A stretch of 64,000 bases of DNA from a virus. A program made the translations under genes and the position numbers. The stretch is taken from positions 32,001-96,000 of IMG/VR virus record IMGVR_UViG_3300019850_000208; one strand, written 5' to 3'. Below the pieces are notes generated by a model, which ran no database searches, was not told the origin of the DNA, and saw only the letters and a program-made list of their open reading frames with translations. Of the stretch, positions 976 through 22,942 are shown one piece after another (within the stretch, counting starts at the first letter, position 1; each line of letters starts with the position of its first letter).

Positions 976-2337
976 TTATGATGTAGCTACTGCTGTCACT
1001 ATAACAGCAAAATTGTGTGATGAAGTATGATCATTAAACACTTGTACTGTAACAGAATTAGTACCTAATGTTATACTGTTAATATGAGGTGTATCGGCGG
1101 AACTTCCACCTCCTCCACCTCCGCCAATGCTGCATTGGAAATACCCAAAACCTGCATCTGTACAACATGCATAAGCAACTAATACGCCCGTCGGGTTAAA
1201 TGAAAATCCTGACACAACAACATCATAATATGAATCAGCTGCGATTGAAGCTGTATTTTGTTTTGTTTCTACTTGCATGGCTATCACCTCATTTCCATTT
1301 TTATCTAAAATCTTATCATTGAAAGTTTTATCACCATAAACGGTCTGTGTTGTTTTGTTTAATTTAACATAGCTCGTACCATCAGGCAAATCATCTAAAG
1401 TTTTACCACTGAAATATTTATTAGTTGAGCCTTCAGACAAGTCATCAGTCGTTTTTCCATTGAAATATTTATTAGTTGAGCCTTCAGACAAGTCATCAGT
1501 TGTTTTTCCATTGAAATATTTATTAGTTGAACCTTCAGACAAGTCATCAGTTGTTTTCCCACTGAAATATTTATTAGTTGATCCTTCAGGTATATCATCC
1601 GAATCTACTCCAGATAATGATCCGCCAATGTCGACATTGCCTATAAAATCTACACTTTGATCAGAATGCAACTTCATCACTTCTAATTTTGTATTTCCAT
1701 CGTAATAATCAAAAATAAAATCTCTGTAGGATCCAGTCCCTCTTTTCTGCATCCGTATTCCATATTGAGATTCAGTCGGATACCCATTGTTGTATAGGTC
1801 TATAAATTCTTGATTTGGCTCATTGCCTCTCACTAGTGATAATGTCGCTTCATAGGGATTGAACCAGGTTTCACTTGGAGCCCATATTTGCAATATGGTA
1901 TAATCGGCCGCATATCGTCTCATTATAAAGAATCCAGTTCCACCTTTATATAATGCTAGCTCTGAATCTCCGGAAATTGAATCATCAAACTGTATGCCGC
2001 CGGTTACTCTTATATCCGAATCCACCGCAAGCTTAAAATTGGTAACCCACTGATCATTAGTCTCATCCCACTTCAAAAAAGCATCGGTTGAGGATCCTCT
2101 TTCGGCGGTAATAAAAGCATCTGATGCCGGTGCACCTGTAGTGCTGCTGTTAAAAATAATTTGATTGCCATCTACCTCCAGTGTCGGCACTGTTAATGTA
2201 CCGCTCATTATATCACCGGTTTTTTGAACAAGATCATCCGATGAGGTGCCTGTGGTTACAGCGGTTTCAACTTTGGTCTCAAAAGAAACTGTATTTATCT
2301 GTTCTGCATTAAGTAATGTTCTTGCCATTTTACACAT
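976..2337 (-). CDS. Tail fibre protein with 17-aa tandem repeats (probable start MARTLLNAEQI at 2328)
   Basis: VQKTGDIMSGTL fibre motif; ERG..WDE module; TTDDLSEGSTNKYF repeats; N-terminal SFETKVETAVT shared with 16716 and 20548 genes; GGAG RBS. Confidence 0.8.
   Translation of the reverse strand: MCKMARTLLNAEQINTVSFETKVETAVTTGTSSDDLVQKTGDIMSGTLTVPTLEVDGNQIIFNSSTTGAPASDAFITAERGSSTDAFLKWDETNDQWVTNFKLAVDSDIRVTGGIQFDDSISGDSELALYKGGTGFFIMRRYAADYTILQIWAPSETWFNPYEATLSLVRGNEPNQEFIDLYNNGYPTESQYGIRMQKRGTGSYRDFIFDYYDGNTKLEVMKLHSDQSVDFIGNVDIGGSLSGVDSDDIPEGSTNKYFSGKTTDDLSEGSTNKYFNGKTTDDLSEGSTNKYFNGKTTDDLSEGSTNKYFSGKTLDDLPDGTSYVKLNKTTQTVYGDKTFNDKILDKNGNEVIAMQVETKQNTASIAADSYYDVVVSGFSFNPTGVLVAYACCTDAGFGYFQCSIGGGGGGGSSADTPHINSITLGTNSVTVQVFNDHTSSHNFAVIVTAVATS
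1406..1600. repeat. 51-bp in-frame tandem repeat, about 4 copies
   Basis: tgaaatatttattagttga at 1410, 1461, 1512 and 1563. Confidence 0.95.
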
Positions 2338-2363
2338 CTCCTGAATAGTTTCATTAAATTCTT

Positions 2364-2406
2364 AGCAAGGAAGCACACAGGTTTTTAGCTTGTGAAAAGA
2401 ATTGCT
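2364..2406 (+). mobile_element. Degenerate IS200/IS605-type end hairpin (remnant, no transposase)
   Basis: AGCAAggaagCACAcaggtttttagctTGTGaaaagaaTTGCT resembles AAGCCCACGACTTTAGTCGTGGG-type ends. Confidence 0.35.
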
Positions 2407-2491
2407 ATATTTCCATGAGCAATCACAAAAGCGTAATTTTTATAATTTCTGTATTTAGCTGCCTGGCTTATATATTATCTTTCAAGAAAAG

Positions 2492-2513
2492 AGATATAAA
2501 ACATATATAGAAG
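2492..2513 (+). promoter_or_regulatory. Candidate phage promoter AGATA-N7-TATATAGAAG
   Basis: Same motif and spacing at 27935-27956, upstream of the only other credible plus-strand gene. Confidence 0.5.
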
Positions 2514-2514
2514 T

Positions 2515-4527
2515 ATGGTAAATTTAATTTTTGTAATAATTAAAAATGAAAATATAAAGGTGTCTTCCGCGGAAGAGATATGCTATTCTCGTAATAAAAA
2601 GGAATACAAGACTTTGCTAATAAACGACAACTATAAATTGACCTCTCGCGACAAAGTGGTATATATTTGTAATAAATGCAATAAAGAAACCACTGAAAAA
2701 TTTAGCAAAAAACATCTTGAAAAGAATTTAATTTGTGCTTCGTGTGCCAGACAAGCAACTAATTTGAATAAGTATGGCGGCAAGTATCCTATTGCCACTA
2801 AAGCAATCAGATACAAAATCGCAAAAACCAATCTGAAAAAGTACGGCGTTGAAAATCCATTTCAAGCAAAAGAAGTTAAAGACAAAATCAAAAAAACTAA
2901 TTTGAAAAAGTATGGAGTTCCATACTCCACTCAGAATCCAGAAGTGCAGCGCAAATCAACGCAAACTAATCTTAAGAAGTATGGAACAAAATACAGCTGT
3001 CAAGCTGAAAAGATCAAAAGAAAAATTAGAGCAACCAATTTAAAAAAATACGGCGCAGAATCTGTTTTATCTGTTGCCAAAATTAGACATAAAATAGAAG
3101 CCACCAATCTGAAAAAATACGGTGCGAAATACGCTCTTCAAGCCGAGAAAGTAAAACAAAAAGCAAAAGAAACTATTAAACAAAAATATGGCGTTGAATA
3201 TATATCTCAGGCCCCTGCAATTCAAGAAAAAATTAAACAAACTAACTTAAAGAAATACGGTGTAGAAAATCCGGCTGCTTCTCAGAAAATTCAAGAGAAA
3301 ATTAAACAAACTAACTTAAAGAAATATGGTGTAGATAATCCTTCAAAATCAGAAGCAGTAAAAGCAAAAAGATCGCTCACAATGCTACGTCGTTTTGGTA
3401 ATACCAATCCGTTCAAGGTCCAAAGTATTATAGACAAAATAACAACTACCAAAAAAAACAAATTTTTGGATGAAATATTCAGTGGTAACAGAGTTGTAGA
3501 AGCGACGCCTTTATTTACGCCCAAGGAATATACAGGCGTAACAACAATGCTTTCTTGGCGTTGTGATAAATGCAACACAGTTTTCAACGACAATTTGGAT
3601 TATGGAAGTGCTCCAAGATGCCCCGTTTGTTACCCTATTTTAAGTAACACCTCTTCCATTGAAAAAGAAGTTAGAGATTACCTTTCATCACTGAATATCA
3701 TTCATATTACGAACGATAGAAATTTAATTCACCCAAAAGAATTAGATATTTTCGTTCCTCAATATAGAATTGCTATTGAGATAGACGGCCTATATTGGCA
3801 TTCCGATCAATTTAAGCCCAAAAATTATCACTTGCAGAAAACACAATTGTGTGAAGCAAAAGGCATTCAGCTTATTCATATATTTGAAGATGAATGGATT
3901 TATAAGCAAAGTATTGTTAAATCGCGTCTCAAATATTTGTTTGGATTGTGTGATCAAACAATTGGCGCCAGATTGACTAATATCCAAAGTATAGAAACTG
4001 CTACCAAAAACATATTTTTAGATACTTATCATATGCAAGGAGCTGATAGATCCAGTATTAAAATAGGCGCTTTTTATAAAGACCGTTTAATGGGGATTAT
4101 GACATTTGTTAAGCCGCGACTATCATTGGGCCAGAAAAAAAGTTTTGCCAATAGGTATGAGCTTTCCAGATATGCTAGTATTGCCAATATATCGCTGCCC
4201 GGTCTGGCATCTAAAATGCTTAAATATTTCATAGTTAACTATAAGCCTCTTGAAATATACACTTATGCCGATCGGCGATGGAGTCAGGGAAAAATATACA
4301 AGCAATTGGGGTTCCAGTTTGTGGGTTTCACGCAGCCTAATTATTGGTACAGTCTTGGTCAAGAAAGAAAACACAGATTTAAGTATAGAAAAAGCGCGTT
4401 GAAAAATTTCAAGAATTATCACCCAAGCAAGACCGAATTTCAAATTATGGATGAGGCCGGCTATTATAGAATATATGATTGTGGCAACTCAAAGTTTGAT
4501 ATGCAATTAAAAAAGCCTCGAGTTTGA
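2515..4527 (+). CDS. Hef-like homing endonuclease: Zn ribbons, ten 23-aa TNLKKYG repeats, PD-(D/E)XK nuclease (Vsr/DUF559-like), C-terminal GNAT/Mom-like domain
   Basis: CxxC pairs; ELDIFVP...IAIEIDGLYWHS...LIHIFEDEW; YELSRY...ASKML...TYADRRWSQGKIYKQLGF...RIYDCG; antisense to the structural operon. Confidence 0.8.
   Translation: MVNLIFVIIKNENIKVSSAEEICYSRNKKEYKTLLINDNYKLTSRDKVVYICNKCNKETTEKFSKKHLEKNLICASCARQATNLNKYGGKYPIATKAIRYKIAKTNLKKYGVENPFQAKEVKDKIKKTNLKKYGVPYSTQNPEVQRKSTQTNLKKYGTKYSCQAEKIKRKIRATNLKKYGAESVLSVAKIRHKIEATNLKKYGAKYALQAEKVKQKAKETIKQKYGVEYISQAPAIQEKIKQTNLKKYGVENPAASQKIQEKIKQTNLKKYGVDNPSKSEAVKAKRSLTMLRRFGNTNPFKVQSIIDKITTTKKNKFLDEIFSGNRVVEATPLFTPKEYTGVTTMLSWRCDKCNTVFNDNLDYGSAPRCPVCYPILSNTSSIEKEVRDYLSSLNIIHITNDRNLIHPKELDIFVPQYRIAIEIDGLYWHSDQFKPKNYHLQKTQLCEAKGIQLIHIFEDEWIYKQSIVKSRLKYLFGLCDQTIGARLTNIQSIETATKNIFLDTYHMQGADRSSIKIGAFYKDRLMGIMTFVKPRLSLGQKKSFANRYELSRYASIANISLPGLASKMLKYFIVNYKPLEIYTYADRRWSQGKIYKQLGFQFVGFTQPNYWYSLGQERKHRFKYRKSALKNFKNYHPSKTEFQIMDEAGYYRIYDCGNSKFDMQLKKPRV
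2758..3447 (+). repeat. Ten 69-bp (23-aa) repeats inside the endonuclease
   Basis: TNLxKYG-like motif with an exact 69-bp period from 2758 to 3379. Confidence 0.9.
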
Positions 4528-4541
4528 CCCCGAGGCTTTTT
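4510..4541. terminator. Bidirectional rho-independent terminator
   Basis: AAAAAGCCTCG-10 nt loop-CGAGGCTTTTT between convergent genes. Confidence 0.85.
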
Positions 4542-4545
4542 ATTA

Positions 4546-7500
4546 TTATGCAGAAGTTTTAACAAGTTCTACAATGACATCATCAGATGTGTCCAAATCT
4601 ACGGCAGAACTTCCTGTTCCATCAAACTCAATCCTTTTTTCAGTAGATACATAACCATAACTCCACTCAGTATCAAGTAATCTTAGGCCATTGAGATATA
4701 CGGCAACATATAGTTCAGATGTTCTAAGCTCAGTTGCTGTTTTGGAACTAGTTGGAAGCTGATTTGTTAATGAAGCATCCGTTAATGTAATATAATCACC
4801 CGAGGCTTCTGAAGCATCAGGAGTTTGTTCTTCGTATCCTATTTCAACCGCTGTCTGAAATGCTTCATTAATCGCGCCTATTATAGAAGTAGCTGTAAAT
4901 CCTGCAGTAAGTCCAGTTGTACCAGATTCAGAAATTGGAATTGCTGAGCTTAAGTATTGATCATCAAAAGTTATATCTCCACTTGAAGTGGTAAATGCAA
5001 TATCTCCTGCCGCATCTACATCAATACCACCTGAGGAGTTAATATCAATTGCATCAATACTAGATTGGCCACTTGCAAGTGTAAGTTTTCCTGCTGTGCC
5101 ACCTGCAGTTTGAATAGTTAAGTTACTATCACTTGTTTGCCATGTAGCGTCGCCGCCTATTGAATTAATGTTAACAGCGCCGTAGGGTGCCATATGGATA
5201 TAAGCTCCGCTATCTTCATCTATAGTTAAACCATTTGTAACATTCATGTCTATTGCATTACCGGAGCCGGAGACTTCAACCGATAGAATATCATTTCCAG
5301 CGGCATCTGCAAATGCATGTTGATAACCGGAAGTAATCTGCCACTCAACGGAGCCATTGTCCATTGTAACAATTCTATTGCCTGTTTCAGCATCATATAT
5401 TTCATCTAATGTTTCGGTGACGGCAGCCTGCCCATAAGCTTGATTTATAGCTCCTATAACTGATGTAGAAATTCCATCATCGAAGCTTGAATTTGACACG
5501 TCGCTAAACGCGATAGCAGATGTTCTACTATCATCAAATTTAAGTTCGCCCGAACCAGCTATTGTATCAGATTCTATGGTTTTTGTATTTGAATTTAAAT
5601 TATTAGCTTTATCGAATGAGCACTCTATTAAAGTTGTTGAGCCGCCATTAGAATTATCTAATGCGTAACTGCCGCTTGTGCTTAGTGATCTAAAACCTAT
5701 CAATGTGGTATTATCAGCGCCCGTGTCAATTTGCACGGCATTATCAGCCGAAGCGGTCGCATAACAACCATTAAGTGTTACTTGAGTTCCTGTAATTTTA
5801 TATGCATAGCCAGGATAGCTACCGCTTCTATTAACTGTACTCTCAGAACCACATCCATCAAGTGTTATGTTATTTGAGGTAACTATGTCATAGGAAATAC
5901 CACAAGCCTCAGATGCGCATCCGGATAAAGATGAATAAGTCATATTGGTTAGCGCAAAACCTGCTTGAGTGTTGGTGATACCATAACAATCTCTAAAGTT
6001 ACAAGAGGTGCCGCCCCAAACATTAAAACCATGACCTGCGCATTTCAAAGTTTTTACATTTATAAACGTGGATAAAATTGGTGTATTAATTGAAATACCG
6101 TCGCCAGCACACTCTTCAAGTAATATATTTTCCATATATATATGAGGAATGTTTGTGTTGCCAGCTCGTGTGAGGAAAATACCACCGCCACCCACCTGAC
6201 CTTGACCCGGACCTATAATTCTCAAATCAATGAACTTTATATTGCCTAGGTCTGTACCTTCAAAATGTCTATAAGTGGTGTTATCGCTTTTTATTCTGGT
6301 TGCTCTACCCTTAAATCCCTGAATTGTAATATTGCTGTAAAGTATAACAGCTGAACCGGCAGATGCTATTTCGGGTGTAAGATCAAAATTATCAACATCT
6401 ACATATAAAGTTCCACCACTATAATTACTATTTAGATAATCTAGTGCGCTCTGAAAAGTTGTAAATTGCGATAGAAAAGCCGTACCACTCATGTCCTTGA
6501 AAGCGGCTTCGCCTGTAACTGTAAGATTGCCTGTTACATCTACAGTATCGCCGGCACCGAGAGCTTTTATGCTTAGAATGTCTGAACCAAGAGAATCTGC
6601 AACATTGAATTCATAATTATCAGTCATCTGCCATTCAACGGAGCCATTGTCCATTGTAACAATTCTGTTGCCTGTTTCGGAATCATAGGCTTCATCTAAA
6701 GTGCTGGAAGCGGCGAGCACATCACTTTTAACTTCATTAAGCGCGGCTACAACAGAAGTGGCGGTAAATCCTGCAGTAAGTCCGGTTGTACCAGATTCAG
6801 AAATTGGAATTGCTGAACTTAGATATTGATCATCAAAGGTTACATCACCATTAGCGCTTGTTAAAGCAATATTATTATCTGCATCTATATCAACACCACC
6901 TGCGGCCGCGTTAATATCAACTGCATTGAGATTTGTGGCACCACCACTGATAGTAAGAATGCCAGGAGTACCACCACTTGTCTGAAATGTTGCTGGTTGA
7001 TCATCAGAGTTGATTTCAATAGCACCGCCGCTTGCTATATGAACATAGGCACCACTATCATCATCTAATGTGATACCATTACCAGCATCAATATCGATGC
7101 CACCACTGGTGGTTTCAATTCTAACAGCAGCCGCATTGGTTGAGTTACCGGCGACAAGTCTAACTGCGTTAGCTGTGTCGCCACCAATGTTACCAGACAT
7201 GTCGGCATAATCGCCTTGCATGCTCAATGAGGCTGAGCTAGCATTAATTGTCATAGATTGGCCAGAAGCTGAATAGAACTGGACAAGACCACTAGATTGA
7301 ATCCTTAGAAATGCTCCAGAATCATCATCTACCGTAAATCCATTTGTTGTATCAATATCGACAGATGCTGAATTTATGTCGAATAGATCGCCATTTGCCA
7401 CTATTTGATCACCTGCAACCAATGGTCTGATGCTGAATAAATCATTGCCGAGGGAATCTGCGAAATTGTGTTCATAGTTGTCTGTTATCTGCCATTCAAC

Positions 7501-10500: not shown

Positions 10501-13251
10501 ATCATCATTTACTGTGAATCCATTAGTGGTATCAATATCCACCGTACTGCCTGATGCCGATACTTCAACCGAGAGAATATCATTACCGACAGAATCAGCA
10601 AAAGCGTGTTGATAACCAGAAGTGATTTGCCATTCAACGGAGCCTGTATCCATTGTGATGATTCTATTGCCTGTTTCGGAATCATACGCACTATCTAAAG
10701 TTGTCGATGCTTCACTTGCTTTAAGTATGTCATATGTGCCTGTGAGGTCCTGGAATCTCCACCGATCAGTAGATTCATCCCAGAATAGGGATACATTAGA
10801 TTGAGAACCACGCTCAACTTCAATGCCCGAGTCTTCAGAAGGAGAACCGCCTGTGTAATTGCTGTTTAATACTATTATATTATCGGCAAGTTCTATAGTT
10901 TCTGTGTTTACTATTGTTTGAGTACCTGTTACTCTGAAGTCGCCATCTATTACAACTTCACCTGTGCCGCTGGTATCTAAGGTTATATCTTCGTCAGCCT
11001 GAGCGGTTAGAGTAATAGCACCTCCAGAACCAGCAGCCGTAATACCTATAGGACCGGCAGTTGTATCTATTCCAATGCCAGTAGTAGCATCAAGTTTTAT
11101 ACCGCCTTGTTGCGCATCAAGTGTTACTGCATTTGCAGTTGCATTACCTGTGCTTTGCAAATAAGCCGTACCGGTTGCAGATAATACCTTTACATTGCCA
11201 GTTCCCTGAGCAGAAAGTGTTACACTTTGATCTGTAGCACCTTGCAAATCCATCTGGCCTGATGTATTCATTGCTATAGATGCGCCAGAATTCTCAGCGA
11301 TATTTATGCCCGCATCTACATCTATATCAACACCGCCAAGTGTATCAATCTTAAATGAACTTGCACCTGTGTCTTGTGGCGAAAATGTAACAGTTCCACC
11401 CTGCACATTGAAATCATATGAATTACTATAATCTATATCAATACCGCCATTAACTGCGTTTAATCGTATGGCGTCTGATGCTGCAAGATCTGCTTGTATT
11501 ATAACATCATTATTTGAGTCTAGAAGAATTGTACTTGTTCCGAGAGTTTGTACATGGAAATCTTGGTTAGAGGTTGGCTCAAAGAAAATCGTTCCAGAAG
11601 ATTGCATCTGAAAACTGGCACCGGAATCATCATCTAAAGTGAAGCCACCATCAGTATCTATATCAATACCACCAAGGGTGTCTAACTTGAAAGAATCAGC
11701 TGCAACATTGCTAATTGTCCAAGTTGATTTATCGGCAACCACATTTACTTCATCGCCCGTTGCGACTGCTTTTACTTCCAGTATTGGGTTACCTGTTCCA
11801 GGTCCTGACACCATCCAGGTTCTGTTATCGCTTAAATCCCAATCAACATCCGTAGTATCAACTGTAATGGTTGAACCATTATTATATGCGGCATCTAATG
11901 AGCCACTGCCTAATGAACCGTTAATTGTATCAATGTCGCCCTGCAGTTCTTCAAAAGCCGCCTGGACATCAGTAGAAGATAAATTGCCGATTGCCTCAAC
12001 ACCGATTAGAGTAGCACCACTGCTACTGGTTGTGGTATCACTCAAATCGCTGACCATGCCCTCTACGGCACTTTGGACTGTGTTGCTCGTATTCCAGCCG
12101 GATGTGGCTAATGGTGTAAATCCTATTAAATCAGCACCAGAACTGGAGTCTGTAACTGAGCCAATTTGTGTTTTTGTATAGTATCTATCATCATGATTAT
12201 GAGTACCGGTTACACCAACAACATCAGTGAAACCATAACCTGTTGCGCTTGCTAGTAGTGGTTTAGAATATTCATTGAATACCTCTATAAATAAGAAGTC
12301 TATTGCTGTTGCTTGTGTAAAAGTATATGCATCACCGTCTTGTTGATGATAGTAAAGTTTATATTCTCTCTTCTGCGCGTTAACACCATTAAGAGCTTCA
12401 GTTGCTGCCGATGTGAGTTCCATAGATGTGTCTGTTCGACCAGTTGTATCAGCAATATAACCAACAGTATTTCCTGTTGCAGGATTAACAAGAGCATCGC
12501 CAGCTTCGAAATCAGTGTTTAAAATTGTGCCGGTACTGGATACGCTCGTACCACCCTGCGATACCGTTACAGTGCCTTTTGTCTTTGTTCTTGCAAAGTT
12601 TTTATCTGTTCCGCTATATGCTGCATTAGCGGTTAAAGTCAGGGAAGTATCATTAGTAATTGTTTGGACAGTACCTATAACTTCTTCAGTATCAACCCTA
12701 ACCAAAACACTGCCAGCCTCCAGTTGGGTTGTAAATAGAGTTCCACCGGTTCCCGATGAGCCGGTTACTGTCGCGCTTCCGGTATTAAACGTTATTGTGC
12801 CAGTAAGAGAAAAGAAATTTTCATGAGAGAAGTAAGCTGTTACTTGGCCATTCTCACCATCATCTATTGGGTCATATGATGAATGCAATCTCATAAGACA
12901 GGTGTAATTTTGGCTTCCAAGGCCCCATTCAGCACTACTGTCGCCACTTGTCAATATACCTTCAGATGAACCATCTCTCGTATGAGCTAATGTTGTAGCA
13001 GCAGATTCAACCTCGGTAGTGACATTATCGCTATTAACGCCGCTAGTAGTCGTGAAATTTTCTATTTTGTCGAAATAGCCATCGAGTTTTGATTCTAAAA
13101 CAGTTTGTTTCGCACCACTGGTCAAGTCGCCGCCTATGAGAGAATTAGTAAGGGCTAACTTGGAGTATGTTATACCAGCAGATGGCGACACCTTTGAGTT
13201 ATTAACTAAGCCATCGCGGACCTGCTCACGCTTTACTTGTGTTGCTGCCAT
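4546..13251 (-). CDS. Giant repetitive tail fibre/appendage protein (2901 aa) with an inserted pectin-lyase-like beta-helix near the C-terminus
   Basis: Repeats GGIDID, ITFDDQYLSSAIPISESGTTGL, TLDEAYDSETGNR; HNHDDRYY motif; parallel beta-helix pattern at ~5580-6450; C-terminal VYLNG domain. Confidence 0.8.
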   Translation of the reverse strand: MAATQVKREQVRDGLVNNSKVSPSAGITYSKLALTNSLIGGDLTSGAKQTVLESKLDGYFDKIENFTTTSGVNSDNVTTEVESAATTLAHTRDGSSEGILTSGDSSAEWGLGSQNYTCLMRLHSSYDPIDDGENGQVTAYFSHENFFSLTGTITFNTGSATVTGSSGTGGTLFTTQLEAGSVLVRVDTEEVIGTVQTITNDTSLTLTANAAYSGTDKNFARTKTKGTVTVSQGGTSVSSTGTILNTDFEAGDALVNPATGNTVGYIADTTGRTDTSMELTSAATEALNGVNAQKREYKLYYHQQDGDAYTFTQATAIDFLFIEVFNEYSKPLLASATGYGFTDVVGVTGTHNHDDRYYTKTQIGSVTDSSSGADLIGFTPLATSGWNTSNTVQSAVEGMVSDLSDTTTSSSGATLIGVEAIGNLSSTDVQAAFEELQGDIDTINGSLGSGSLDAAYNNGSTITVDTTDVDWDLSDNRTWMVSGPGTGNPILEVKAVATGDEVNVVADKSTWTISNVAADSFKLDTLGGIDIDTDGGFTLDDDSGASFQMQSSGTIFFEPTSNQDFHVQTLGTSTILLDSNNDVIIQADLAASDAIRLNAVNGGIDIDYSNSYDFNVQGGTVTFSPQDTGASSFKIDTLGGVDIDVDAGINIAENSGASIAMNTSGQMDLQGATDQSVTLSAQGTGNVKVLSATGTAYLQSTGNATANAVTLDAQQGGIKLDATTGIGIDTTAGPIGITAAGSGGAITLTAQADEDITLDTSGTGEVVIDGDFRVTGTQTIVNTETIELADNIIVLNSNYTGGSPSEDSGIEVERGSQSNVSLFWDESTDRWRFQDLTGTYDILKASEASTTLDSAYDSETGNRIITMDTGSVEWQITSGYQHAFADSVGNDILSVEVSASGSTVDIDTTNGFTVNDDSGAQIAIANTGAVAVIGGNDHTVTLESTGSGTIQLKAINGGVWIINNNSTATDAIKINASTGGIDIDASQGITLDENGGSYLHIGNTGAIDLSSTNNTLTIQTAGTTPGHLILRATAASDNYAMDINSSGGIDVDAANNIAFTTSGGDITFDDQYLSSAIPISESGTTGLALGFTATSVVAALNEVKSDVLAASSTLDEAYDSETGNRIITMDNGSVEWQMTDNYEHNFADSLGNDILSVKALASGDEIQMNVDVLNINVSNNEVDINTTAGFRIDDDSGSYFQMHSGGNINAVSPSNVLLQSQLNVDIQRLSTAAGGNIDIDSRSPDADAILLDAVNGGIDVNADDTMDIDVGIFDLYTDDLSASSVKIDTLGGIDLDVDAGFTLNDNSGGNFQLQTSGKIFFEPASGQDFQVQVPGAGNVNLETTTGTAKIFSVSGGKVELSTNNTSATAIVIAATNTGGGIDIDSDTDTSITSANGDITFDDQYLSSAIPISESGTTGLALGFTSTSIVGAINELKTAGAASTLDEAYDGETGNKIITVDSGSVEWQLTDNYEFNVADSLGADVFSVKALVTGDEIHMDAYAVDIVLTGNTATDSWKLDTAGGIDIDVDSGINIAENSGASMAMNAAGQIDLQGATDQNVTLTTQGTGDATISSVNGRSYIKNTTSAAADAVKIEASTGGIDIDSADGITFNDDSGSKLLFDASGYITMTSGIGQNIDITGFSGSVKLSSTADTKKVWLQSTNATQIDSVVLQSASGGVRVLATAATYGIFTVDADRVDINANNGITIDENSGANFTITNTGAVSLTTASNSALTLGTSGSGTATISATSGQIYLNNTTNTNNDAIWVRAQQGGATIDVAKEVVVQSSSGGITLTAASDNDITLDTSGTGQVLIDGDLTVTGTQTIVNTETIELADNLIVLNSNYTGGSPTEDSGIEIERGSQSNVSLFWDESADRWRFQDLTGTYDILKASEASTTLDSAYDSETGNRIVTMDTGSVEWQITDNYEHNFADSLGNDLFSIRPLVAGDQIVANGDLFDINSASVDIDTTNGFTVDDDSGAFLRIQSSGLVQFYSASGQSMTINASSASLSMQGDYADMSGNIGGDTANAVRLVAGNSTNAAAVRIETTSGGIDIDAGNGITLDDDSGAYVHIASGGAIEINSDDQPATFQTSGGTPGILTISGGATNLNAVDINAAAGGVDIDADNNIALTSANGDVTFDDQYLSSAIPISESGTTGLTAGFTATSVVAALNEVKSDVLAASSTLDEAYDSETGNRIVTMDNGSVEWQMTDNYEFNVADSLGSDILSIKALGAGDTVDVTGNLTVTGEAAFKDMSGTAFLSQFTTFQSALDYLNSNYSGGTLYVDVDNFDLTPEIASAGSAVILYSNITIQGFKGRATRIKSDNTTYRHFEGTDLGNIKFIDLRIIGPGQGQVGGGGIFLTRAGNTNIPHIYMENILLEECAGDGISINTPILSTFINVKTLKCAGHGFNVWGGTSCNFRDCYGITNTQAGFALTNMTYSSLSGCASEACGISYDIVTSNNITLDGCGSESTVNRSGSYPGYAYKITGTQVTLNGCYATASADNAVQIDTGADNTTLIGFRSLSTSGSYALDNSNGGSTTLIECSFDKANNLNSNTKTIESDTIAGSGELKFDDSRTSAIAFSDVSNSSFDDGISTSVIGAINQAYGQAAVTETLDEIYDAETGNRIVTMDNGSVEWQITSGYQHAFADAAGNDILSVEVSGSGNAIDMNVTNGLTIDEDSGAYIHMAPYGAVNINSIGGDATWQTSDSNLTIQTAGGTAGKLTLASGQSSIDAIDINSSGGIDVDAAGDIAFTTSSGDITFDDQYLSSAIPISESGTTGLTAGFTATSIIGAINEAFQTAVEIGYEEQTPDASEASGDYITLTDASLTNQLPTSSKTATELRTSELYVAVYLNGLRLLDTEWSYGYVSTEKRIEFDGTGSSAVDLDTSDDVIVELVKTSA
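6610..10930. repeat. Long near-identical internal DNA repeats: ~6610-6837 vs ~9823-10050 and ~7490-7790 vs ~10629-10930
   Basis: Direct alignment by eye; offsets about 3.1-3.2 kb. Confidence 0.9.
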
Positions 13252-13333: not shown

Positions 13334-15208
13334 TTACAACTTAATTATTTTTATTTTTATTTTTTCATTTTCCTGCAAATCGTATCCCCCGAATCCTGTA
13401 CCGGAGAATTTTATTAACTTTTTTGTATTACCGGAATCATAAAAATAGCGCCATTCATCATCATATTTTTCAACGCCATCTATTACTATATCAACCAATA
13501 TATTGCTGCCTCGCAAAGTTGCCGGACTTATTAAAGTGTCAGCCTGTTCGGTCGGTAATATACTAGAATTGCTTTCTATTTCGTCATTTGTAGCCTCCGT
13601 GATATCTACTACATTTTCTTCATAAGAATGTTCTGGTTGATAGCTTCCAGTAGTAGGGTTGCCTATTACTGTGATATAATCGCCCAATTCACCAGCTTGG
13701 ACAAGAGTAATGGAAGTTGAAGAGGTTTCAGCATAATCTTCGGTTACTCTTTGCAGAAGACCATTATAGAACACCAATATTTCATCATTTCCAACTTCAT
13801 ATGAATTAGTTAGATTAATAACTGTTTGGCCATTTGTTAAATTAAAATTTTCCTGCCATTTAACATCTGTTACTGGCTGCCACTCGCTTACGCTTTCTTT
13901 CCATCTATAAAGAACATTTTCGCTTAACACCAATCTAATGTCGCCATTAGTATTAGATGATAATGGTAAATCTATGAAGTTGGGAACTGGTAATTCCCAT
14001 CTTTCAACACCGGCAGAAATTAGTAACCAAACAGATCCGGTTGATTTCCATCTAAATACGTCGCTGGTATTTAATACCAGCCTGACATCGCCATCGGAAT
14101 TGCCGGATGCAGGTAATGCGCTTTCGGTGGCAACTGGTGCTTTCCAATAAGCTTCTGTTAAATCCGGCAAGTCAGTGAGGTTATTATAACTAATTTTTGG
14201 GCCCTGACCATTTGTACCATCGTGAATATGCCCTAAATCTTTATCAAAGAAGACATTCACTTCTGCGCTTGTGTAATAGCGAACATCTAAAGTACCATTT
14301 AGTAATTCCGATTCGGTATAGTATCTATCATCGAGAACATTATTACCAACACTGGCAGATGGATCAAGTTGCGTCTTTGTATAATATCTATCATCATGAA
14401 AGTGTGTGCCAGGAGATACCATCACCCAGCTAGATGTCGAAGAATTCCATCTGTAAATTCTATTACCATATGTAGTATCGGCAATGTTCTTTACATATCT
14501 AACATCACCATCAAGATTTCCGCTGGCCGGCAAGTCCCCATATGTCGGAACAGGAGAGTGCCAGTATCCTATTCCGCCTCCCCCACCAGAAATAGCTTCC
14601 CACTGAGATAAACCAGAATTCCACCTATAAAGTGTATTATTATCTAATACTAGTCTGATATCGCCATTATTATTGCCGGTAGATGGCAGATCACCTATGG
14701 AATTAACTGGATCAAGCCAATTACTTGAATTCACCTCTGATAATTTGGAGCCAATATATTTATATCCAGTTACTTTAAATGGGATTGTGTATGAGTGTGA
14801 ATTCTGAATGAAAAGATAGCCTGGATTGTATTGCCAGAACCAATCCATAGAATCTGAACTGGAAATTTCTACATCATTATTATCATACAGCCTAACGGTA
14901 TATCCCTGTCCAAACTTTGGGGGGACCCATCCAGTTAGATTATCCGAGCTATAATAAGCATACCAGCCCTTGTGATTTGAAACTGCGAAATCTTCTGTTA
15001 ATGTTAGTAGGGTGTATTTTTGAACTATGCCATTAGTTTCGGCCACGCTTGGATTAGAATTAATTTCATCAACCCAAACATCATTGGCATAAACAGTGAA
15101 AGCTGATGAGCGTATTTCTTCGTATACTTGTTTTGAAATAGATGTCAATGTTTTATCATTCAAAAATTTGAATGAAAAATCTATTTTTGTATTATCAGAT
15201 AAAGCCAA
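13334..15208 (-). CDS. Virion structural protein (TTG start) with four W-x-x-PV..LP..GN..GD repeats, one VFYNG domain and a C-terminal domain shared with the 2901-aa fibre
   Basis: Motifs visible in the translation. Confidence 0.75.
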   Translation of the reverse strand: MALSDNTKIDFSFKFLNDKTLTSISKQVYEEIRSSAFTVYANDVWVDEINSNPSVAETNGIVQKYTLLTLTEDFAVSNHKGWYAYYSSDNLTGWVPPKFGQGYTVRLYDNNDVEISSSDSMDWFWQYNPGYLFIQNSHSYTIPFKVTGYKYIGSKLSEVNSSNWLDPVNSIGDLPSTGNNNGDIRLVLDNNTLYRWNSGLSQWEAISGGGGGIGYWHSPVPTYGDLPASGNLDGDVRYVKNIADTTYGNRIYRWNSSTSSWVMVSPGTHFHDDRYYTKTQLDPSASVGNNVLDDRYYTESELLNGTLDVRYYTSAEVNVFFDKDLGHIHDGTNGQGPKISYNNLTDLPDLTEAYWKAPVATESALPASGNSDGDVRLVLNTSDVFRWKSTGSVWLLISAGVERWELPVPNFIDLPLSSNTNGDIRLVLSENVLYRWKESVSEWQPVTDVKWQENFNLTNGQTVINLTNSYEVGNDEILVFYNGLLQRVTEDYAETSSTSITLVQAGELGDYITVIGNPTTGSYQPEHSYEENVVDITEATNDEIESNSSILPTEQADTLISPATLRGSNILVDIVIDGVEKYDDEWRYFYDSGNTKKLIKFSGTGFGGYDLQENEKIKIKIIKL

Positions 15209-16444: not shown

Positions 16445-16511
16445 TTAATAGTTTCCTTAACTTATTTTATTAATAAAATCAAACTGTTGTTCTTGTTTAG
16501 CTTTTTATTTT

Positions 16512-16706
16512 TTATACACTTTGTAAATTCGCCTGTTCTGCTATTCTTCTTTGTAATATTTCTTCGTGTTCATTACCTATTTCTGTTTGTGTAGGTTTTT
16601 TATCATACAAAACAACTTCAGTTTCAATGTTTCCTAAATCGTCTACAATCTCAAAAGTATACTCATAAGTAGGTAATACTCTATCAATTACTGAACCTTT
16701 TGTCAT
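16512..16706 (-). CDS. Small hypothetical protein, possibly C-terminally truncated
   Basis: GGAG RBS; an out-of-frame AKQEQQFDFINKIS* follows the stop. Confidence 0.55.
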   Translation of the reverse strand: MTKGSVIDRVLPTYEYTFEIVDDLGNIETEVVLYDKKPTQTEIGNEHEEILQRRIAEQANLQSV

Positions 16707-16715
16707 AGTTATCTC

Positions 16716-17246
16716 CTATGCCATTTTCTTAATAAATATTAAACTATAATATGCTGGTTTGTTTTCGTGTGCTGAACCACCACCTGAATAGTTAGTTGGA
16801 CATTGATTAGTGCCGCTTCGTATATCATTTGTAATTCCACCACCTGTATAACCTTTATAAGCAACGGTCCCTCCAGTTTCTCCACCCGTTTTTATTTCAT
16901 GACTATGTATTGGCATTTCACTAATTGTCAATGTGTGGGTATCTTCACCACCTGTATTTCCACTTGCATTTTCAGACCGAATAAACCTATTGAGAAGGTT
17001 TGGAGCGCCATTGCCATTACAAACTTTCCATCCAGCAAGCGTTGCTGTATCGCCTGTTCTATCACCAATGTCTTCAGTTCTTGTAGCCACATCGGCTATA
17101 CCAGTTCCATCATACATTAAAATCACGCCCACCGGCAAAGCGGCCTGTACATCATTTGCTGCAGCGCCAGATGTTACGGCAGTTTCCACTTTAGTTTCAA
17201 AACTGCTTGTCTCTATATCAGTGCCTTTTATTTTTGTTACTGGCAT
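16716..17246 (-). CDS. Short tail-fibre tip protein (tail-collar-like, HxH metal motif)
   Basis: LPVGVILMYDG..GWKVCNG..PNLLNRFIR..GGEDTHTLT..EMPIHSH..AHENKPAYYSLIFI. Confidence 0.8.
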   Translation of the reverse strand: MPVTKIKGTDIETSSFETKVETAVTSGAAANDVQAALPVGVILMYDGTGIADVATRTEDIGDRTGDTATLAGWKVCNGNGAPNLLNRFIRSENASGNTGGEDTHTLTISEMPIHSHEIKTGGETGGTVAYKGYTGGGITNDIRSGTNQCPTNYSGGGSAHENKPAYYSLIFIKKMA

Positions 17247-17255
17247 TTATTCCTC

Positions 17256-17744: not shown

Positions 17745-18010
17745 TTTTTCCTCATTTCTTCTAATCTTTTGTTACGCTCTTTTGCTAATTCCAAAGGAAT
17801 ATCCTTAACAAGATTTTTCTTTTCTCCAAATGATATTTTTTGTGGATTCTTATCTGTTCTATCAAGTATTATTCTATCTCGTACCCGTCTCACTTTTTCT
17901 CTTGCAGCATTTTCTAACCAATCAATAAATGAATAGCAATCTGTTTCTATTACCCGTTGGTCTTCATCATCTATTTGAATTGTTTTTATTTCGTCTGATA
18001 TTGTTATCAT
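17741..18010 (-). CDS. Small hypothetical protein, tail-fibre-associated
   Basis: GGAG RBS; ATGA overlap with the downstream gene. Confidence 0.65.
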   Translation of the reverse strand: MITISDEIKTIQIDDEDQRVIETDCYSFIDWLENAAREKVRRVRDRIILDRTDKNPQKISFGEKKNLVKDIPLELAKERNKRLEEMRKK

Positions 18011-18019
18011 TATAATCTC

Positions 18020-19162
18020 CTATGCAAACTTATGTATGTTGAAATAATCATAAACAACATGTGCATATGTATTGACTGCTCCACCCTGATTATGATAAGC
18101 CCTTATATCTACATAATCATTTTTTGCTAAATAAATATCAGTGGCTAATTTAGTATCTACATAAAATGTACCTGCTGCATAAACCATATTTCTGTAACCA
18201 AAAACTACCTCAACTTCATTCCTAAAAAGGGCTATACGCCAATATTCACCGGCATCCCATGCTACACTGTTAGAAAGTAAACCAGCATCTGCATGGTAAT
18301 ATCCGCCTTCTTTTGCCGTAAATCTGTAATTTGTAATATTATCATATTCATTATTAAGATCGTATTCTTTATCATCATATTTTACAATTGTCCATGTATC
18401 ATTAGGAATCGACTGTACATCATCTTTTGTAATTCTACATGCACTCTGCTTTGGGAAATCTATAATACCATTATCGTGTATTCTTTGTGCTTCGACACCG
18501 GCTACTTTTGCAACAATTTCATCTTTGTCTGAAGTTTCTTCAACTTCGATATAAGTATCACCATCTGCATCACCTAATTTTTTACCAACTCCTAATATAG
18601 TATCTGATAATGTCGTAGTTCCACTAACCTCTAAAGTACTCAAAAACCACGCATCCCCAATTTGAGTAGGAGTAGATTTAATTTTACAAATTGATATAAT
18701 AAGTTCATTAGCATACTCACTACTAAGACCACTATCATATAAACTACTATTATCATCATTTATAAGTGGTGCTACAGCAAAATCACTATCTGGGTCATTA
18801 AGAGTTTGACCATTTGCTTCTACCCAGCCTGAAGGTAATTCTGGTTCATCATAAACAGCATAACTTTCATTTCCATCTGGAAAAGCATTATAATCCAAAG
18901 TTAAATCATTTGCAGAAACATTTAGTACTACTGCAAATATTTTATCAGTAGAATTATAAACAATATCACCAACTGATATAGTAGAAAAAGCTTCCGAGGA
19001 ATCCTTTAAATGATTTTCAGTATATGAATCTGCTGTACTAGATATTAGAGCAGTCTGAGTAATTGCATATCTGCTTTTCATCCAATACATAATTGTTCCA
19101 ATAGGTGAATCATCAAAATAAAGTCTACCACCTATAGGCTGTGATAAATGTTTTGTACTCAA
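18020..19162 (-). CDS. Tail fibre protein with an interrupted collar-like N-terminus and a C1q/TNF-like tip (TTG start)
   Basis: PIGTIMYW...LPSGWVEANGQ; DADGDTYIEVE; QSIPNDTWTIVKYD..EYD...YRFTAKEGGYY (C1q pattern, PF00386-like). Confidence 0.7.
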   Translation of the reverse strand: MSTKHLSQPIGGRLYFDDSPIGTIMYWMKSRYAITQTALISSTADSYTENHLKDSSEAFSTISVGDIVYNSTDKIFAVVLNVSANDLTLDYNAFPDGNESYAVYDEPELPSGWVEANGQTLNDPDSDFAVAPLINDDNSSLYDSGLSSEYANELIISICKIKSTPTQIGDAWFLSTLEVSGTTTLSDTILGVGKKLGDADGDTYIEVEETSDKDEIVAKVAGVEAQRIHDNGIIDFPKQSACRITKDDVQSIPNDTWTIVKYDDKEYDLNNEYDNITNYRFTAKEGGYYHADAGLLSNSVAWDAGEYWRIALFRNEVEVVFGYRNMVYAAGTFYVDTKLATDIYLAKNDYVDIRAYHNQGGAVNTYAHVVYDYFNIHKFA

Positions 19163-19177
19163 TTTAAATTCTCCTTA

Positions 19178-20260
19178 TTATAATTCTGCATCAAACGCTA
19201 TATAAGATGTAATATTATTGTCAGAAGTTAGTTGATAAAGTTGACCTGCAGTCAACGATGAAGAAGCTGTCACACTAAGATCAATACAATGAGAACTACT
19301 TTGATCAACTGACATATTAGTAACTGATGTATTAGCTGTTCCATCGAAAACTATTAAATTACCTGAATAACTAAGAGACGGAGCTGTACGCATTATCACA
19401 GGAAACTGTACATAAATATAAGCACCTCCATTACCATTCCCAACTCCTTGTCCATACCTTATATAAGCTGATTCAGCATTTTTTCTATGATAATATCTCA
19501 TACTCCTTACTAACTCACTTTCATAATCATTAGGTATAAATGGAGTAGCGATTTTTCCAAGTTCAAATTTAACTCCAGCTAGGAAAATATTATTATCTGT
19601 ACTATCACATGCATTGACTTGATTAAAAGTCGCTATATAATTTCCTGTTTGCCATGCATCAGGAGTAGTTTGATACGTTGAACCACTTGCAAATGTCCAG
19701 TTTATATATAAACCAGCTCCATTAGCATAGTCCCATGTACCATCTGAATAATCAAATGGAATTACTATAATTTTATATTCCCAAGTATCAGTAACATTAA
19801 CAGTATATTCAGCAACATAGCTTCTATCAGAAATAGAATTTCGAAAACCAACACAATAAGTTCCTATTTTAGTTGCTTTAACCCAAAAAGATAGAACGCC
19901 ATAATTTCCTACATACTTCTTAAAATTATAACCTTCTATTGCTTGGTATAATTGACAATAATTACCTGCATCAATATCTGAATCAGCAGTAGTACAATCT
20001 ATTTTAAGAGAATAACTAATATCACTATTTGGTATATCTGTGTCACGAGTAATGTCATGAACCATAGTACCATTTTTAGTATAGCGAAACCTATCAGCAT
20101 TATATGTAGCATGAGGTATTGAAGCAAAACTAGTTCCTCTTTGCCAAAATCTTAGACCCCCATTAATAATATCATTGTGACCTACTAAGTTTTTACTACG
20201 TAAATAATCTTTCACATAAAGTGAATGGTCAAATATTTTAATTCCTTTAAATAATTTCAT
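19178..20260 (-). CDS. Carbohydrate-binding (jelly-roll) tail fibre protein
   Basis: IINGGLRFWQRGTSF...LSFWVK...GVKFELGKIATPF...ELVRSMRYY...FPVIMRTAP. Confidence 0.75.
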   Translation of the reverse strand: MKLFKGIKIFDHSLYVKDYLRSKNLVGHNDIINGGLRFWQRGTSFASIPHATYNADRFRYTKNGTMVHDITRDTDIPNSDISYSLKIDCTTADSDIDAGNYCQLYQAIEGYNFKKYVGNYGVLSFWVKATKIGTYCVGFRNSISDRSYVAEYTVNVTDTWEYKIIVIPFDYSDGTWDYANGAGLYINWTFASGSTYQTTPDAWQTGNYIATFNQVNACDSTDNNIFLAGVKFELGKIATPFIPNDYESELVRSMRYYHRKNAESAYIRYGQGVGNGNGGAYIYVQFPVIMRTAPSLSYSGNLIVFDGTANTSVTNMSVDQSSSHCIDLSVTASSSLTAGQLYQLTSDNNITSYIAFDAEL

Positions 20261-20279
20261 TTAATTTTCAATCCTTAAT

Positions 20280-20537
20280 TTATGTTATATTACCAGTTTT
20301 GAAATTAATGTTATGCGGTTGTACATAATCAAAATTGTATTTCTTTCCCATTTTCTCCCACCATATTTCGCTCAATCTGTTCATCTTTACATATTTATTT
20401 AATATTTCATATAGCAATTCTTTATTCTTAATTGGTACTGTTTTCATGAGCAATTTATCAAGTAACTCCTCAATTCCCATCTTTTTATCAATGATATTTT
20501 GAATTGTTTTTCTTTCTCTCTCGGTAACTGTTATCAT
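20280..20537 (-). CDS. Small hypothetical protein
   Basis: AGGAG RBS, directly follows the tip gene. Confidence 0.6.
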   Translation of the reverse strand: MITVTERERKTIQNIIDKKMGIEELLDKLLMKTVPIKNKELLYEILNKYVKMNRLSEIWWEKMGKKYNFDYVQPHNINFKTGNIT

Positions 20538-20547
20538 TTTAGACTCC

Positions 20548-21126
20548 TTAACTCATTTTTATTATCGGTATTAAACTATAAAATGCTGGTTTATTCGCTC
20601 CTGTTCCTGAACTTCCAGCATTATCTATTGTTACTGTGTGATTATGAGCTTGATTATTATTTCCTACCCTACTATTTATTGCTTCACATGTAGCTGCAGA
20701 TGCAGCAGCATAACCAAGTAATGAACCGTTGCCAGTCTCAAGGTTAACATTATGGTCATGATTTGCACTTTGATTTCCAACAGAATTTGTGTGAGTATGG
20801 CTTACCACTATTGCATCATCACTGCCACCAGTATTACCAGAGGCAGATTCCATCCTTAGAAATCTATTAAGCATATTTGGTGTACCTGCGTTGCCATTGC
20901 AAGCCTTCCAGCCCGGCAAAGATATCGTATCTCCGGTCCTGTCTCCAATGTCTTCAGTTCTTGAGGCGGCATCTGCAATGCCAGAGCCATTATACATTAG
21001 AATTACACCCACCGGCAAAGCGGGTTGTACATCATTCGCTGCAGCGCCAGATGTTACGGCAGTATCCACTTTAGTTTCAAAACTGCTTGTCTCTATATCG
21101 TGGCCTTTGACTTGTGTTGCTGACAT
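20548..21126 (-). CDS. Short tail-fibre tip protein, paralogue of 16716..17246 with a different distal tip
   Basis: Very similar first ~95 aa; SHTH/NHDH/AHNH motifs. Confidence 0.8.
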   Translation of the reverse strand: MSATQVKGHDIETSSFETKVDTAVTSGAAANDVQPALPVGVILMYNGSGIADAASRTEDIGDRTGDTISLPGWKACNGNAGTPNMLNRFLRMESASGNTGGSDDAIVVSHTHTNSVGNQSANHDHNVNLETGNGSLLGYAAASAATCEAINSRVGNNNQAHNHTVTIDNAGSSGTGANKPAFYSLIPIIKMS

Positions 21127-21244
21127 ATAATAATCACCCCTTGTTTAAAAACATCTTTGAATATTGTCATCTTTCTTCTGCTGTTTTATATCCCCTTTTA
21201 TTTCAGCATTCATTATAGCTTCTATAAGTTCTATTATTTTATTC

Positions 21245-22942
21245 TTAATACTTTATAATAAAATTAACCCCTACATTATTAGGCCTTGTTTCATTTGACG
21301 TTCTCGGAGTTCCATTTGCTCCGTCGGTTATAATGTTCCTTGCTTCTATATGCTCAAATGTACCCGAAACCTCAGTATAACTATATGCATCTCCGTCCGT
21401 TGTACCAGGATCACCTATTATAAAGGTAGCTCTATCGCTTTTCAATTCATGCCAATGCCCCTGAAAACTATCATCTTCTGCGGTTCCTAATACTGTTGTA
21501 TGATTTTGTGTAAATTTCGTAGAAGTTCCAACGCCTCTTGGGAATGCCCCTCTCATATCGGGTACATTAAAAGTTGTTGAGCCGTCTCCTGTCCCATAAG
21601 TTGTTCCTATGACAGCAAACAAAGCAGCATAAGTTGTCCTGCTAACTGCTGCACCATTACAAAGAAGCCATCCTGTTGGAGCTGTTGCTGCCCCATACAT
21701 TGTGATTGCACCTATTATAATAAGGTCATATACAGCATCTGCACTGGGAGCATGAGTAGTATCACCATCAGTTATATTCTGTGTAATAAAACTACTATAA
21801 TCATTTTTAGTAGCTTCGCCAACATTGATATCAATTTCGGTGGTGGATTTGGCTACCCCAAGCCATACTCTATATTCATCAGAGGATATTAAATCCGTAT
21901 CCTGAATTATAGCTCCACTGTCGCCAAGAAATACTGGATCTCCAGCCGTCAATCCAGTAAAGCCATCCAAAAGGCCAGATCCCTGAACCGTAACATTATG
22001 TGATGAACTCGCCGCGGCAGTTGAAATTCCTATAACTTCTATTTTAGAACTATAGCGCTTATCGGCGGCTACAGCCTGATCTATGGTGCTGTTTTTGGCG
22101 CAAACTTTATAGGCGCCGATGCTTTCTCCAGCGGTATATGTTTTACTAGAAGTTCCTGATGAACCAGATGCTGTATAATCCCTGGCTTTGCGTATAACTA
22201 CAATGTCACCATTGACCAGGCCATTATTAAAAGCTATTTGGCCATCTGCAGTTTCCTGATAGTCATTACCTGATCCTTCCAGCATCAAAAGACCATTTTT
22301 GAATACATCCACTTCTTGATTGCCATGAGTAAATGAAAATGTAGTGTTGAACACAGTTTGACTGGCTGTTGCCGTAAAACTCTCTACCTCACCATAAAAA
22401 TTATTATTTGGATTGCCTATTATGAATGATACATCATCGCCTGCGACGACTGTGTATTCGAATGTTACTGTGTGCTCATCAGTTTCAGTATAATCATAGC
22501 CTGCGCCATTTTTCATCAAAAGACCATTTTTATACACGCGTAGGTTATCCGTGCCGGGCACATAATCATGACTCAAAGTAAAGGTGGTTTGTCCAGGTCC
22601 TGAGGAAACAACATAATCTTCGCGAATTGTGTTTACAACATTTCCAGAAAATGATACAGCATTCCATTCAGATGCTGAAGAATCCCACTGGTAAAACTCT
22701 TCTCGATTATTGACAAATCTTATATCATTATCAGAATTCCCGGTTGCAGGCAAATCACTATAAGCATCAACACTGCCCTTAAGACTGCCCAATGAATCGC
22801 TAATCCAACCGGTAACGCTATTGATTTTAGATTGAGCTATATCTGCGCCGGAATTTACATCAGCATTCTTTATAGTTCCGTCTTTTATGTCTACAGATTC
22901 AACTGAATCATCTCTAATTTGAGAACCTTTGATTCCAGGCAT
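21245..22942 (-). CDS. Modular tail fibre: N-terminal peptide, W-PV repeat, two VxKNG domains, cement-like domain, tail-collar domain (PF07484)
   Basis: GAITMYGAATAPTGWLLCNGAAVSRTTYAALFAVIGTTYG.GDGSTTFNVPDMRG; ETRPNNVGVNFIIKY. Confidence 0.85.
   Translation of the reverse strand: MPGIKGSQIRDDSVESVDIKDGTIKNADVNSGADIAQSKINSVTGWISDSLGSLKGSVDAYSDLPATGNSDNDIRFVNNREEFYQWDSSASEWNAVSFSGNVVNTIREDYVVSSGPGQTTFTLSHDYVPGTDNLRVYKNGLLMKNGAGYDYTETDEHTVTFEYTVVAGDDVSFIIGNPNNNFYGEVESFTATASQTVFNTTFSFTHGNQEVDVFKNGLLMLEGSGNDYQETADGQIAFNNGLVNGDIVVIRKARDYTASGSSGTSSKTYTAGESIGAYKVCAKNSTIDQAVAADKRYSSKIEVIGISTAAASSSHNVTVQGSGLLDGFTGLTAGDPVFLGDSGAIIQDTDLISSDEYRVWLGVAKSTTEIDINVGEATKNDYSSFITQNITDGDTTHAPSADAVYDLIIIGAITMYGAATAPTGWLLCNGAAVSRTTYAALFAVIGTTYGTGDGSTTFNVPDMRGAFPRGVGTSTKFTQNHTTVLGTAEDDSFQGHWHELKSDRATFIIGDPGTTDGDAYSYTEVSGTFEHIEARNIITDGANGTPRTSNETRPNNVGVNFIIKY

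Follow-up and report, generated by a model that had tools for sequence, protein, structure and literature searches.

We analysed a stretch of 64,000 nucleotides (the window) covering bases 32001-96000 of the 108,574-bp IMG/VR virus contig IMGVR_UViG_3300019850_000208 (G000), a contig estimated to be about half complete, and concentrated on a short peptide with which several of its fibre proteins begin and on the NG (VxxNG) domains of neighbouring large proteins. Nearly all of the large genes of the window lie on the minus strand. Taken in transcription order, a myovirus baseplate module (a gp5/V-type hub, a gp6/J-type wedge and a P2 I-type protein) precedes a long series of large structural proteins, which includes p2582, p415, p905 and p1269, further on p344, p565, p192, p360 and p380, and then p176, p343, p624, p2901 and p453. 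No nucleotide match was found when the fibre region was compared by megablast with 50,697 deposited phage genomes. The closest relatives by baseplate wedge protein, the contigs G001 (L008) and G002 (L009), are 68% identical in it and both end inside the p1269 homologue, which suggests that the downstream fibre cluster is too variable or too repetitive to assemble. The main genes are the following (aa, amino acids; PV-DLP, a repeat of ~48 aa).

976-2328, minus strand: p453, 453 aa, peptide-bearing fibre
4546-13251, minus strand: p2901, giant fibre of 2901 aa
13334..15208, minus strand: p624, NG-bearing fibre
16716-17246, minus strand: p176, the peptide directly followed by a tail-collar-like head that has an HxH motif
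20548-21126, minus strand: p192, the peptide joined straight to a tail-collar-like head
21245..22942, minus strand: p565, generic-repeat N-terminus, one PV-DLP, two NG domains, a stalk and a Pfam Collar head
36724..40533, minus strand: p1269, NG array
40855..43572, minus strand: p905, NG array
G000:C1:30748-32013, plus strand: p421, 421 aa, almost wholly upstream of the window, its last codons being window positions 1..13
G000:C1:14471-15751, plus strand: p426, 426 aa, outside the window

A preceding sequence-only reading had proposed that p453, p176, p192, p2901 and p565 start with one and the same peptide. All five N-termini are present as it quoted them, each with a Shine-Dalgarno-like motif upstream of the start codon, and it is because of this motif that MARTLL at 2328, rather than an upstream ATG, is favoured as the start of the 453-aa gene. 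When compared with all open reading frames of the contig, the first 34 residues of p192, p176 and p453 find each other (phmmer, E ~5e-7), with matches that run from residues 1-34 to residues 1-34, and the proposed common continuation, SFETKV(E/D)TAVT(S/T)G, is indeed found in these three. The five-fold sharing thus stands for p453, p176 and p192 but not for p2901, of which MxATQVK alone matches p192 (E 6.5), nor for p565, whose matches to p176 and p192 are not significant (E 3.7-5.4). Two members had been missed, p421 and p426, both just outside the window and both with a variant of the peptide, so that five paralogous fibres of the phage bear it (p453, p176, p192, p421 and p426). To call the bearers five otherwise different fibres was an overstatement: p176 and p192 are paralogous (53% identity over their full length) and p421 has the same head, and five fibres with three kinds of body is the better wording. 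The feature is real: it has five members, of which two lie outside the window, and p2901 and p565 are not among them. Within the window the peptide is found at three places.

2230..2328, minus strand: peptide of p453, aa 1-33
17148..17246, minus strand: peptide of p176, aa 1-33
21028..21126, minus strand: peptide of p192, aa 1-33

The bodies behind the peptide differ. In p453 the next elements are a GDIMSGTL motif, a shaft domain that p2901 also contains, tandem repeats of 17 aa (at window 1406-1581, four to five tandem 51-bp repeats encode SEGSTNKYF(N/S)GKTTDDL) and a distinct C-terminal domain, and p421 combines the variant peptide (MGTRINLDYQV..QFDDK) with a shaft and a collar head as in p176 and p192. 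The heads of p176 and p192 match tail-collar and tail-fibre families of PHROG only (phrog_8469, E 1e-18; phrog_1800, E 5e-8), with a weak, below cut-off match to Pfam Gp10_C; a sequence search of the PDB with p176 gave no match and no sequence-level likeness to gp12. The head of p565 is a Pfam Collar domain (PF07484, E 3.8e-26). A possible likeness of the peptide itself to the N-terminus of T4 gp12 was dropped, as the PDB sequence search did not support it. Between p176 and p453, codons 15-25 of the peptide carry 7 synonymous and 0 non-synonymous differences, which indicates purifying selection on the protein rather than homology of the DNA. Between p176 and p192, the peptide DNA is 97% identical over codons 12-33, with flanks at 70-85%, a pattern that points to gene conversion or recent duplication.

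The peptide also defines a wider protein family. A 35-position profile built from the five N-termini and scored against 1.84 billion representative proteins retrieved 22 protein clusters at E<=1e-3, with a match that begins at residue 1 in every one of them (22/22), in proteins 39-730 aa long; p2901 and p565 were not retrieved. The peptide is ~27-35 residues in length, with the consensus M-P-x-T-x-[ILV]-[KN]-x-x-[QD]-[ILV]-[ED]-T-[TS]-x-F-E-x-K-V-E-T-A-V-x-[TS]-G, usually continued by xSDDVVxKxGDTMTGxLxVP, and intermediates bridge the subtypes 'TQVKG..ETSSFETKV' and 'TRINLDYQV..QFDDK'. Behind it stand collar-type heads, p426-type bodies, bodies with a C-terminal sequence that resembles, by eye (no family search was run on them), an endosialidase-type chaperone, and others. 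It is absent from all cultured phages searched, and its alignment found no locus in IMG/VR, a scan with the type-A module returned one irrelevant locus, two scans of GTDB genomes gave no peptide-bearing locus, and the type-B alignment yielded one useful contig, G003, a more distant one of 189 kb, whose single peptide-bearing protein, of p426 type, is encoded next to gp15-like and sheath genes. On the podovirus-like contig L096, a head very like that of p192 sits on a fibre without the peptide, whose N-terminus reads, by eye, as a T7-gp17-type anchor; the peptide thus holds the position of an attachment module. Taken together, these analyses make it most likely that the peptide serves as a docking module for interchangeable, presumably trimeric, receptor-binding proteins. 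On an unrelated viral contig, two adjoining collar-head genes (L097:6861-8576) have the common N-terminus MSVPTSISQL.TT.SLNSPAG.EPIGN; judging from these sequences, the pair is the same principle with another peptide.

For p565 and p2901, membership was rejected on the nature of their own N-termini, which align with each other and with those of their orthologues on a related metagenome contig. With a profile built from this region, 159 proteins were retrieved, bacterial surface proteins included; among the 116 examined, the match was internal in all (116/116) and present in several copies in 115. Such internal, multi-copy matches mark the start of both proteins as a generic fibrous repeat of ~22 aa, not a specific tag.

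13117..13251, minus strand: N-terminus of p2901, generic ~22-aa fibre repeat common to p565

We then considered the NG domains. A hidden Markov model (HMM) bore out the numbers of VxxNG domains that had been proposed for the fibres, two in p565, one in p624 and one at the end of p2901, and brought the total to 14 clear copies, with five each in p905 and p1269 and a divergent one in p2901. In addition, p624 has a second NG-like domain at its end, a divergent one with homology to the p2901 C-terminus.

22169..22627, minus strand: two tandem NG domains of p565 (aa 106-258; HMM matches at aa 106-179 and 184-255), candidate trimeric sockets or the fibre's own anchor
13643..13864, minus strand: NG domain of p624 (aa 450-519)
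4561..4791, minus strand: divergent NG-like domain at the extreme C-terminus of p2901 (aa 2821-2897)
p905, aa 418-490, 497-569, 570-642, 672-741 and 747-821, with a partial sixth: NG domains, candidate single-chain sockets
p1269, aa 368-438, 476-546, 550-622, 683-757 and 764-838, with partial ones too: NG domains, candidate single-chain sockets

An AlphaFold2 (AF2) model of p565 aa 96-268, which contains both NG domains, was made from an alignment of 38 natural sequences and reached a predicted local distance difference test score (pLDDT) of 86. Foldseek matched it to 9f4b, 7rej and 5iv5. The first domain (NG1) superimposes on XD2 of CBA120 TSP4 (7rfv 187-250; Z 9.4, root-mean-square deviation (rmsd) 1.5 A, 64 residues aligned) and on T4 gp10 157-249 (5iv5_AC; Z 7.0, rmsd 2.4, 75 aligned), and the tandem on TSP4 185-335, that is XD2 plus XD3 (7rej; Z 8.8, 134 aligned), as well as on a gp10-like chain of Klebsiella phage KP1. 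The best match of the second domain (NG2) is the N-terminal domain of a podovirus fibre (LME-1; Z 10.7, rmsd 4.5, 85 aligned), and it also fits T7 gp17 (Z 8.9-9.4, rmsd 2.0-2.4, 67 aligned). The NG sequence profile matches the tandem N-terminal domains of the Klebsiella K1 depolymerase 9k4a (E 4e-6). At the Pfam gathering score p565, p624 and p2901 do not match PF03906, to which weak Pfam matches of the NG-like domains were seen. From this confident model, the NG domain is predicted to have the XD2/XD3 (T4gp10-like) beta-sandwich fold, a known fibre-joining module. In p565, p624 and p2901 it is internal or C-terminal in position. A query with the tandem found 79 IMG/VR loci, most of them fibres of ~515 aa that have it close to the N-terminus; the contigs are mostly below 60 kb.

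Anchor-branch systems of receptor-binding proteins (RBPs), which combine a T4gp10-like domain with an N-terminal conserved peptide, have been described and validated (PMC6872550, PMC13352976); in KP32, RBP2 is no longer incorporated once its conserved peptide of 29 aa is deleted, and this peptide can be transferred (PMC13352976). By analogy, we propose that the N-terminal peptide of our family would fasten interchangeable, presumably trimeric receptor-binding proteins to the virion, and that its landing sites would be three-fold or pseudo-three-fold NG platforms, formed by the single-chain arrays of p905 and p1269 or by the one or two NG copies of p565, p624 and p2901. The order of the genes mirrors the RBP1->RBP2 arrangement of Klebsiella phages, since p192 is the first gene downstream of p565 with its NG tandem and p453 is the next same-strand gene after p2901 with its C-terminal NG domain. 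We put the probability of this whole model, a docking peptide that lands most likely on NG platforms, at roughly 0.45, and regard an NG platform as the best candidate partner of the peptide, at about even odds. Of the plug-and-socket arrangement put forward in the sequence-only reading, what survives is that the NG domain has the fold of a docking platform and that the peptide behaves like the conserved peptide of a secondary RBP; the peptides assigned to p2901 and p565 do not.

Several observations weigh against this model. The peptide was not found at any of the 79 other viral loci with NG-NG fibres, an absence that fits lineage-specific co-evolution but lends it no support. Two syntenic relatives, L094 and L095, have the order p344-p565-p343-p624-p2901 without the p192...p176 cassette; the NG-NG fibre is thus present where the adjoining peptide-bearing genes are absent, in contigs that span only part of the fibre module. 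In G003, two profiles detected no NG domain at E<=0.1, and no baseplate or large fibre genes are recognisable; because this contig is without the baseplate region, the absence of NG is weak evidence. Three fibres with one peptide would compete, or would need several equivalent sites. The partners of TSP4 in CBA120 attach through head domains or through their own XD2 (as TSP2 does to TSP4), with no short peptide, and the XD fold therefore does not imply a peptide ligand. Finally, the AF2 monomer model of p192 is poor (pLDDT 50), with only a tentative helix at aa 13-25. A bolder version of the proposal appears rather unlikely to us. According to it, one ~35-residue address peptide would plug at least five receptor-binding proteins both into the pseudo-three-fold sockets of p905 and p1269 (three XD-type domains in one chain) and into those of trimeric fibres, giving an expandable, possibly stochastic or competitive, multi-adhesin tail in a jumbo phage lineage that is uncultured. 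Were this true, the 176-192-aa proteins made of peptide plus head would be the smallest self-contained adhesin cartridges described.

A first alternative concerns the sockets rather than the peptide. Since an XD fold can also do the attaching itself, as in CBA120 and T7, the NG domains of p565, p624 and p2901 may be the fibres' own attachment modules, and sockets, if any, would be restricted to the p905 and p1269 arrays. Several of the observations already given agree with this: NG2 of p565 resembles most a podovirus domain that binds the tail, the tandem lies near the N-terminus in most of the 79 loci, TSP2 uses its own XD2 to attach, and the p565 orthologue of L094 and L095 keeps its NG-NG tandem with no peptide-bearing gene adjoining. 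However, the NG-like domains of p2901 and p624 are located distally on the fibre, at the C-terminus or close to it, where a joint makes more sense than an anchor, and RBP1 of the KP32 type and TSP4 use the same tandem, there preceded by an N-terminal segment, as their branching site. We hold this alternative to be doubtful.

Alternatively, the peptide may be a docking or anchor module whose partner is not NG but another site of the baseplate, neck or fibre, for example the PV-DLP domain; in a variant of this idea, different members of the family bind different sites. PV-DLP follows the pattern W..PV....DLP.TGN..GD.R.V......Y.W......W..I and was located as follows.

23668-24147: PV-DLP of p344, three copies
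13850-14719: PV-DLP of p624, four copies
22634-22783: PV-DLP of p565, one copy
G000:C1:10473-10622: PV-DLP of p285, a gp15-like tail-terminator protein

This partner was raised by the gp15-like neighbourhood of the p426-type proteins in both genomes, together with the PV-DLP repeat on the gp15-like protein. In the contig of the window, p426 lies ~3 kb from p285 and far from the fibre cluster; in G003, where no NG domain was detected in 189 kb, the peptide-bearing protein is next to the sheath gene and ~5 kb from a gp15-like protein with two PV-DLP repeats. The three copies that p344 has in one chain could, moreover, form a pseudo-three-fold platform. Against this, PV-DLP matches nothing in sequence searches of Pfam and PDB and has no docking precedent, while NG has an established one, and the missing baseplate region of G003 weakens the argument here as it did above. 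Overall, a partner other than NG strikes us as somewhat unlikely.

The last alternative, quite unlikely in our view, is that the shared N-terminus is an intrinsic element of the fibre (a short neck or coiled coil that trimerises, or a nucleus for folding), inherited by gene duplication, kept by gene conversion (as the patch of near-identical DNA in p176 and p192 suggests) and leaving attachment to some other part of the protein: the helix of the low-confidence p192 model would be amphipathic, with F16, V20, A23 and V24 on one face, and most members of the family run into a conserved GDTMTGxL shaft start. However, p176 and p192 consist of peptide and head alone, with no other segment left for attachment, the peptide never takes the internal position open to a simple trimerisation unit, and the same head is carried by a putative anchor domain in the phage of L096. 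A recent origin alone is also argued against by p453 and p176, between which synonymous sites are saturated and no amino acid differs.

Some further features of the fibre cluster were noticed. The block p192-p85-p360-p380-p89-p162-p176 (16716-21126) is missing at the corresponding positions of the two syntenic relatives (L094:2454-4946 and L095:1549-4042), where the p343 orthologue comes directly after that of p565. Its edges are the mini-fibre genes p192 and p176, with their near-identical peptide DNA (exact runs of 26 and 35 bp), and it looks like a receptor-binding cassette that was gained or lost. A perfect 34-bp inverted repeat is shared by p421 (G000:C1:31601-31634) and the oppositely oriented p176 (window 16960-16993), at the border between the conserved first half and the variable second half of the collar head, and could be a site of recombination or inversion or a trace of gene conversion; p421 and p192 (window 20801-20820) share a 20-bp inverted repeat. 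The giant fibre p2901 has long internal repeats, with exact matches of 30-50 bp that recur at window ~4900, 6700, 9000 and 9900. The L094 orthologue (L094:6738-13016) is 2092 aa long and holds three internal NG and two PV-DLP domains that are missing in p2901, differences that imply a shaft remodelled between relatives. Between p2901 and p453, on the opposite strand (window 2515-4527, plus), lies a 670-aa gene with about ten NLKKYG-type repeats (DUF7487) and a region like Vsr or restriction endonucleases, of which a 51% identical copy stands beside the sheath gene of G003 and another, in the other relative orientation, after the giant fibre of L094. It is probably a mobile endonuclease gene.

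If the pairing of peptide and NG platform is true, the anchor-branch principle would extend from phages of Klebsiella and E. coli and from T4-type phages to uncultured, large myoviruses of low guanine-plus-cytosine content, with a new, sequence-unrelated peptide/platform pair, and it would explain how one virion can carry many adhesins, very small ones included. Pairs of this kind are handles for the modular engineering of host range in laboratory phages, and the peptide profile is an easy way to mark out secondary receptor-binding proteins on phage contigs from metagenomes. As the principle itself is already established, we regard the finding as incremental rather than surprising.

The plug-and-socket idea has precedents, and the known systems allow a close comparison (Latka 2019 and 2026; PMC6872550, PMC13352976; CBA120; G7C). 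The anchor-branch examples include KP32 gp37/gp38, KP34, K1-5/SP6 and G7C gp66/gp63.1, and, among jumbo phages, PhiK64-1/RaK2 and phiKp24; Latka et al. described PhiK64-1 with one anchor, four conserved peptides and five T4gp10-like domains (PMC6872550), and phiKp24 has been modelled likewise (PMC9700779). As in these systems, an adjacent fibre or baseplate protein has tandem domains predicted to have the XD2/XD3 fold, p565 and p2901, with the branching domain, are encoded ahead of p192 and p453, with the peptide, the candidate secondary proteins begin with a short conserved peptide and are unrelated in their distal parts, and several such elements are reused in one large phage. In contrast to the Klebsiella and E. 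coli systems, the peptide is unrelated in sequence and is carried by five paralogues of one genome. Furthermore, p176 and p192 are peptide plus head, with neither shaft nor enzymatic domain, the heads are of the collar type and not depolymerases, and many of the candidate sockets are in single chains (p905 and p1269) and not in trimers.

The fold of the NG domain, as modelled, matches that of the joints of T4 gp10-gp12/gp11 and of CBA120 TSP4/TSP2 (5iv5, 7rej, 7rfv). In T4 gp10, XD2 and XD3 form trimers to which those of gp12 and gp11 bind, and in CBA120 XD2 and XD3 of TSP4 hold TSP2 and TSP1 (PMC8825819). In their heads, p176, p192 and p421 resemble short tail fibres, which have a collar-type head and are the kind of protein held by gp10 in T4, whereas XD1 and the C-terminal domains of gp10 were not found. 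The N-terminal domain of T7 gp17 (PF03906; 7boz, 8dsp) has the same beta-sandwich fold as the modelled NG2 of p565 but, unlike an NG domain acting as a socket, it anchors the fibre at the adaptor-nozzle interface and offers no socket for another fibre. Plug and socket are thus best seen as the known anchor-branch architecture, in a new lineage and with a sequence-unrelated peptide.

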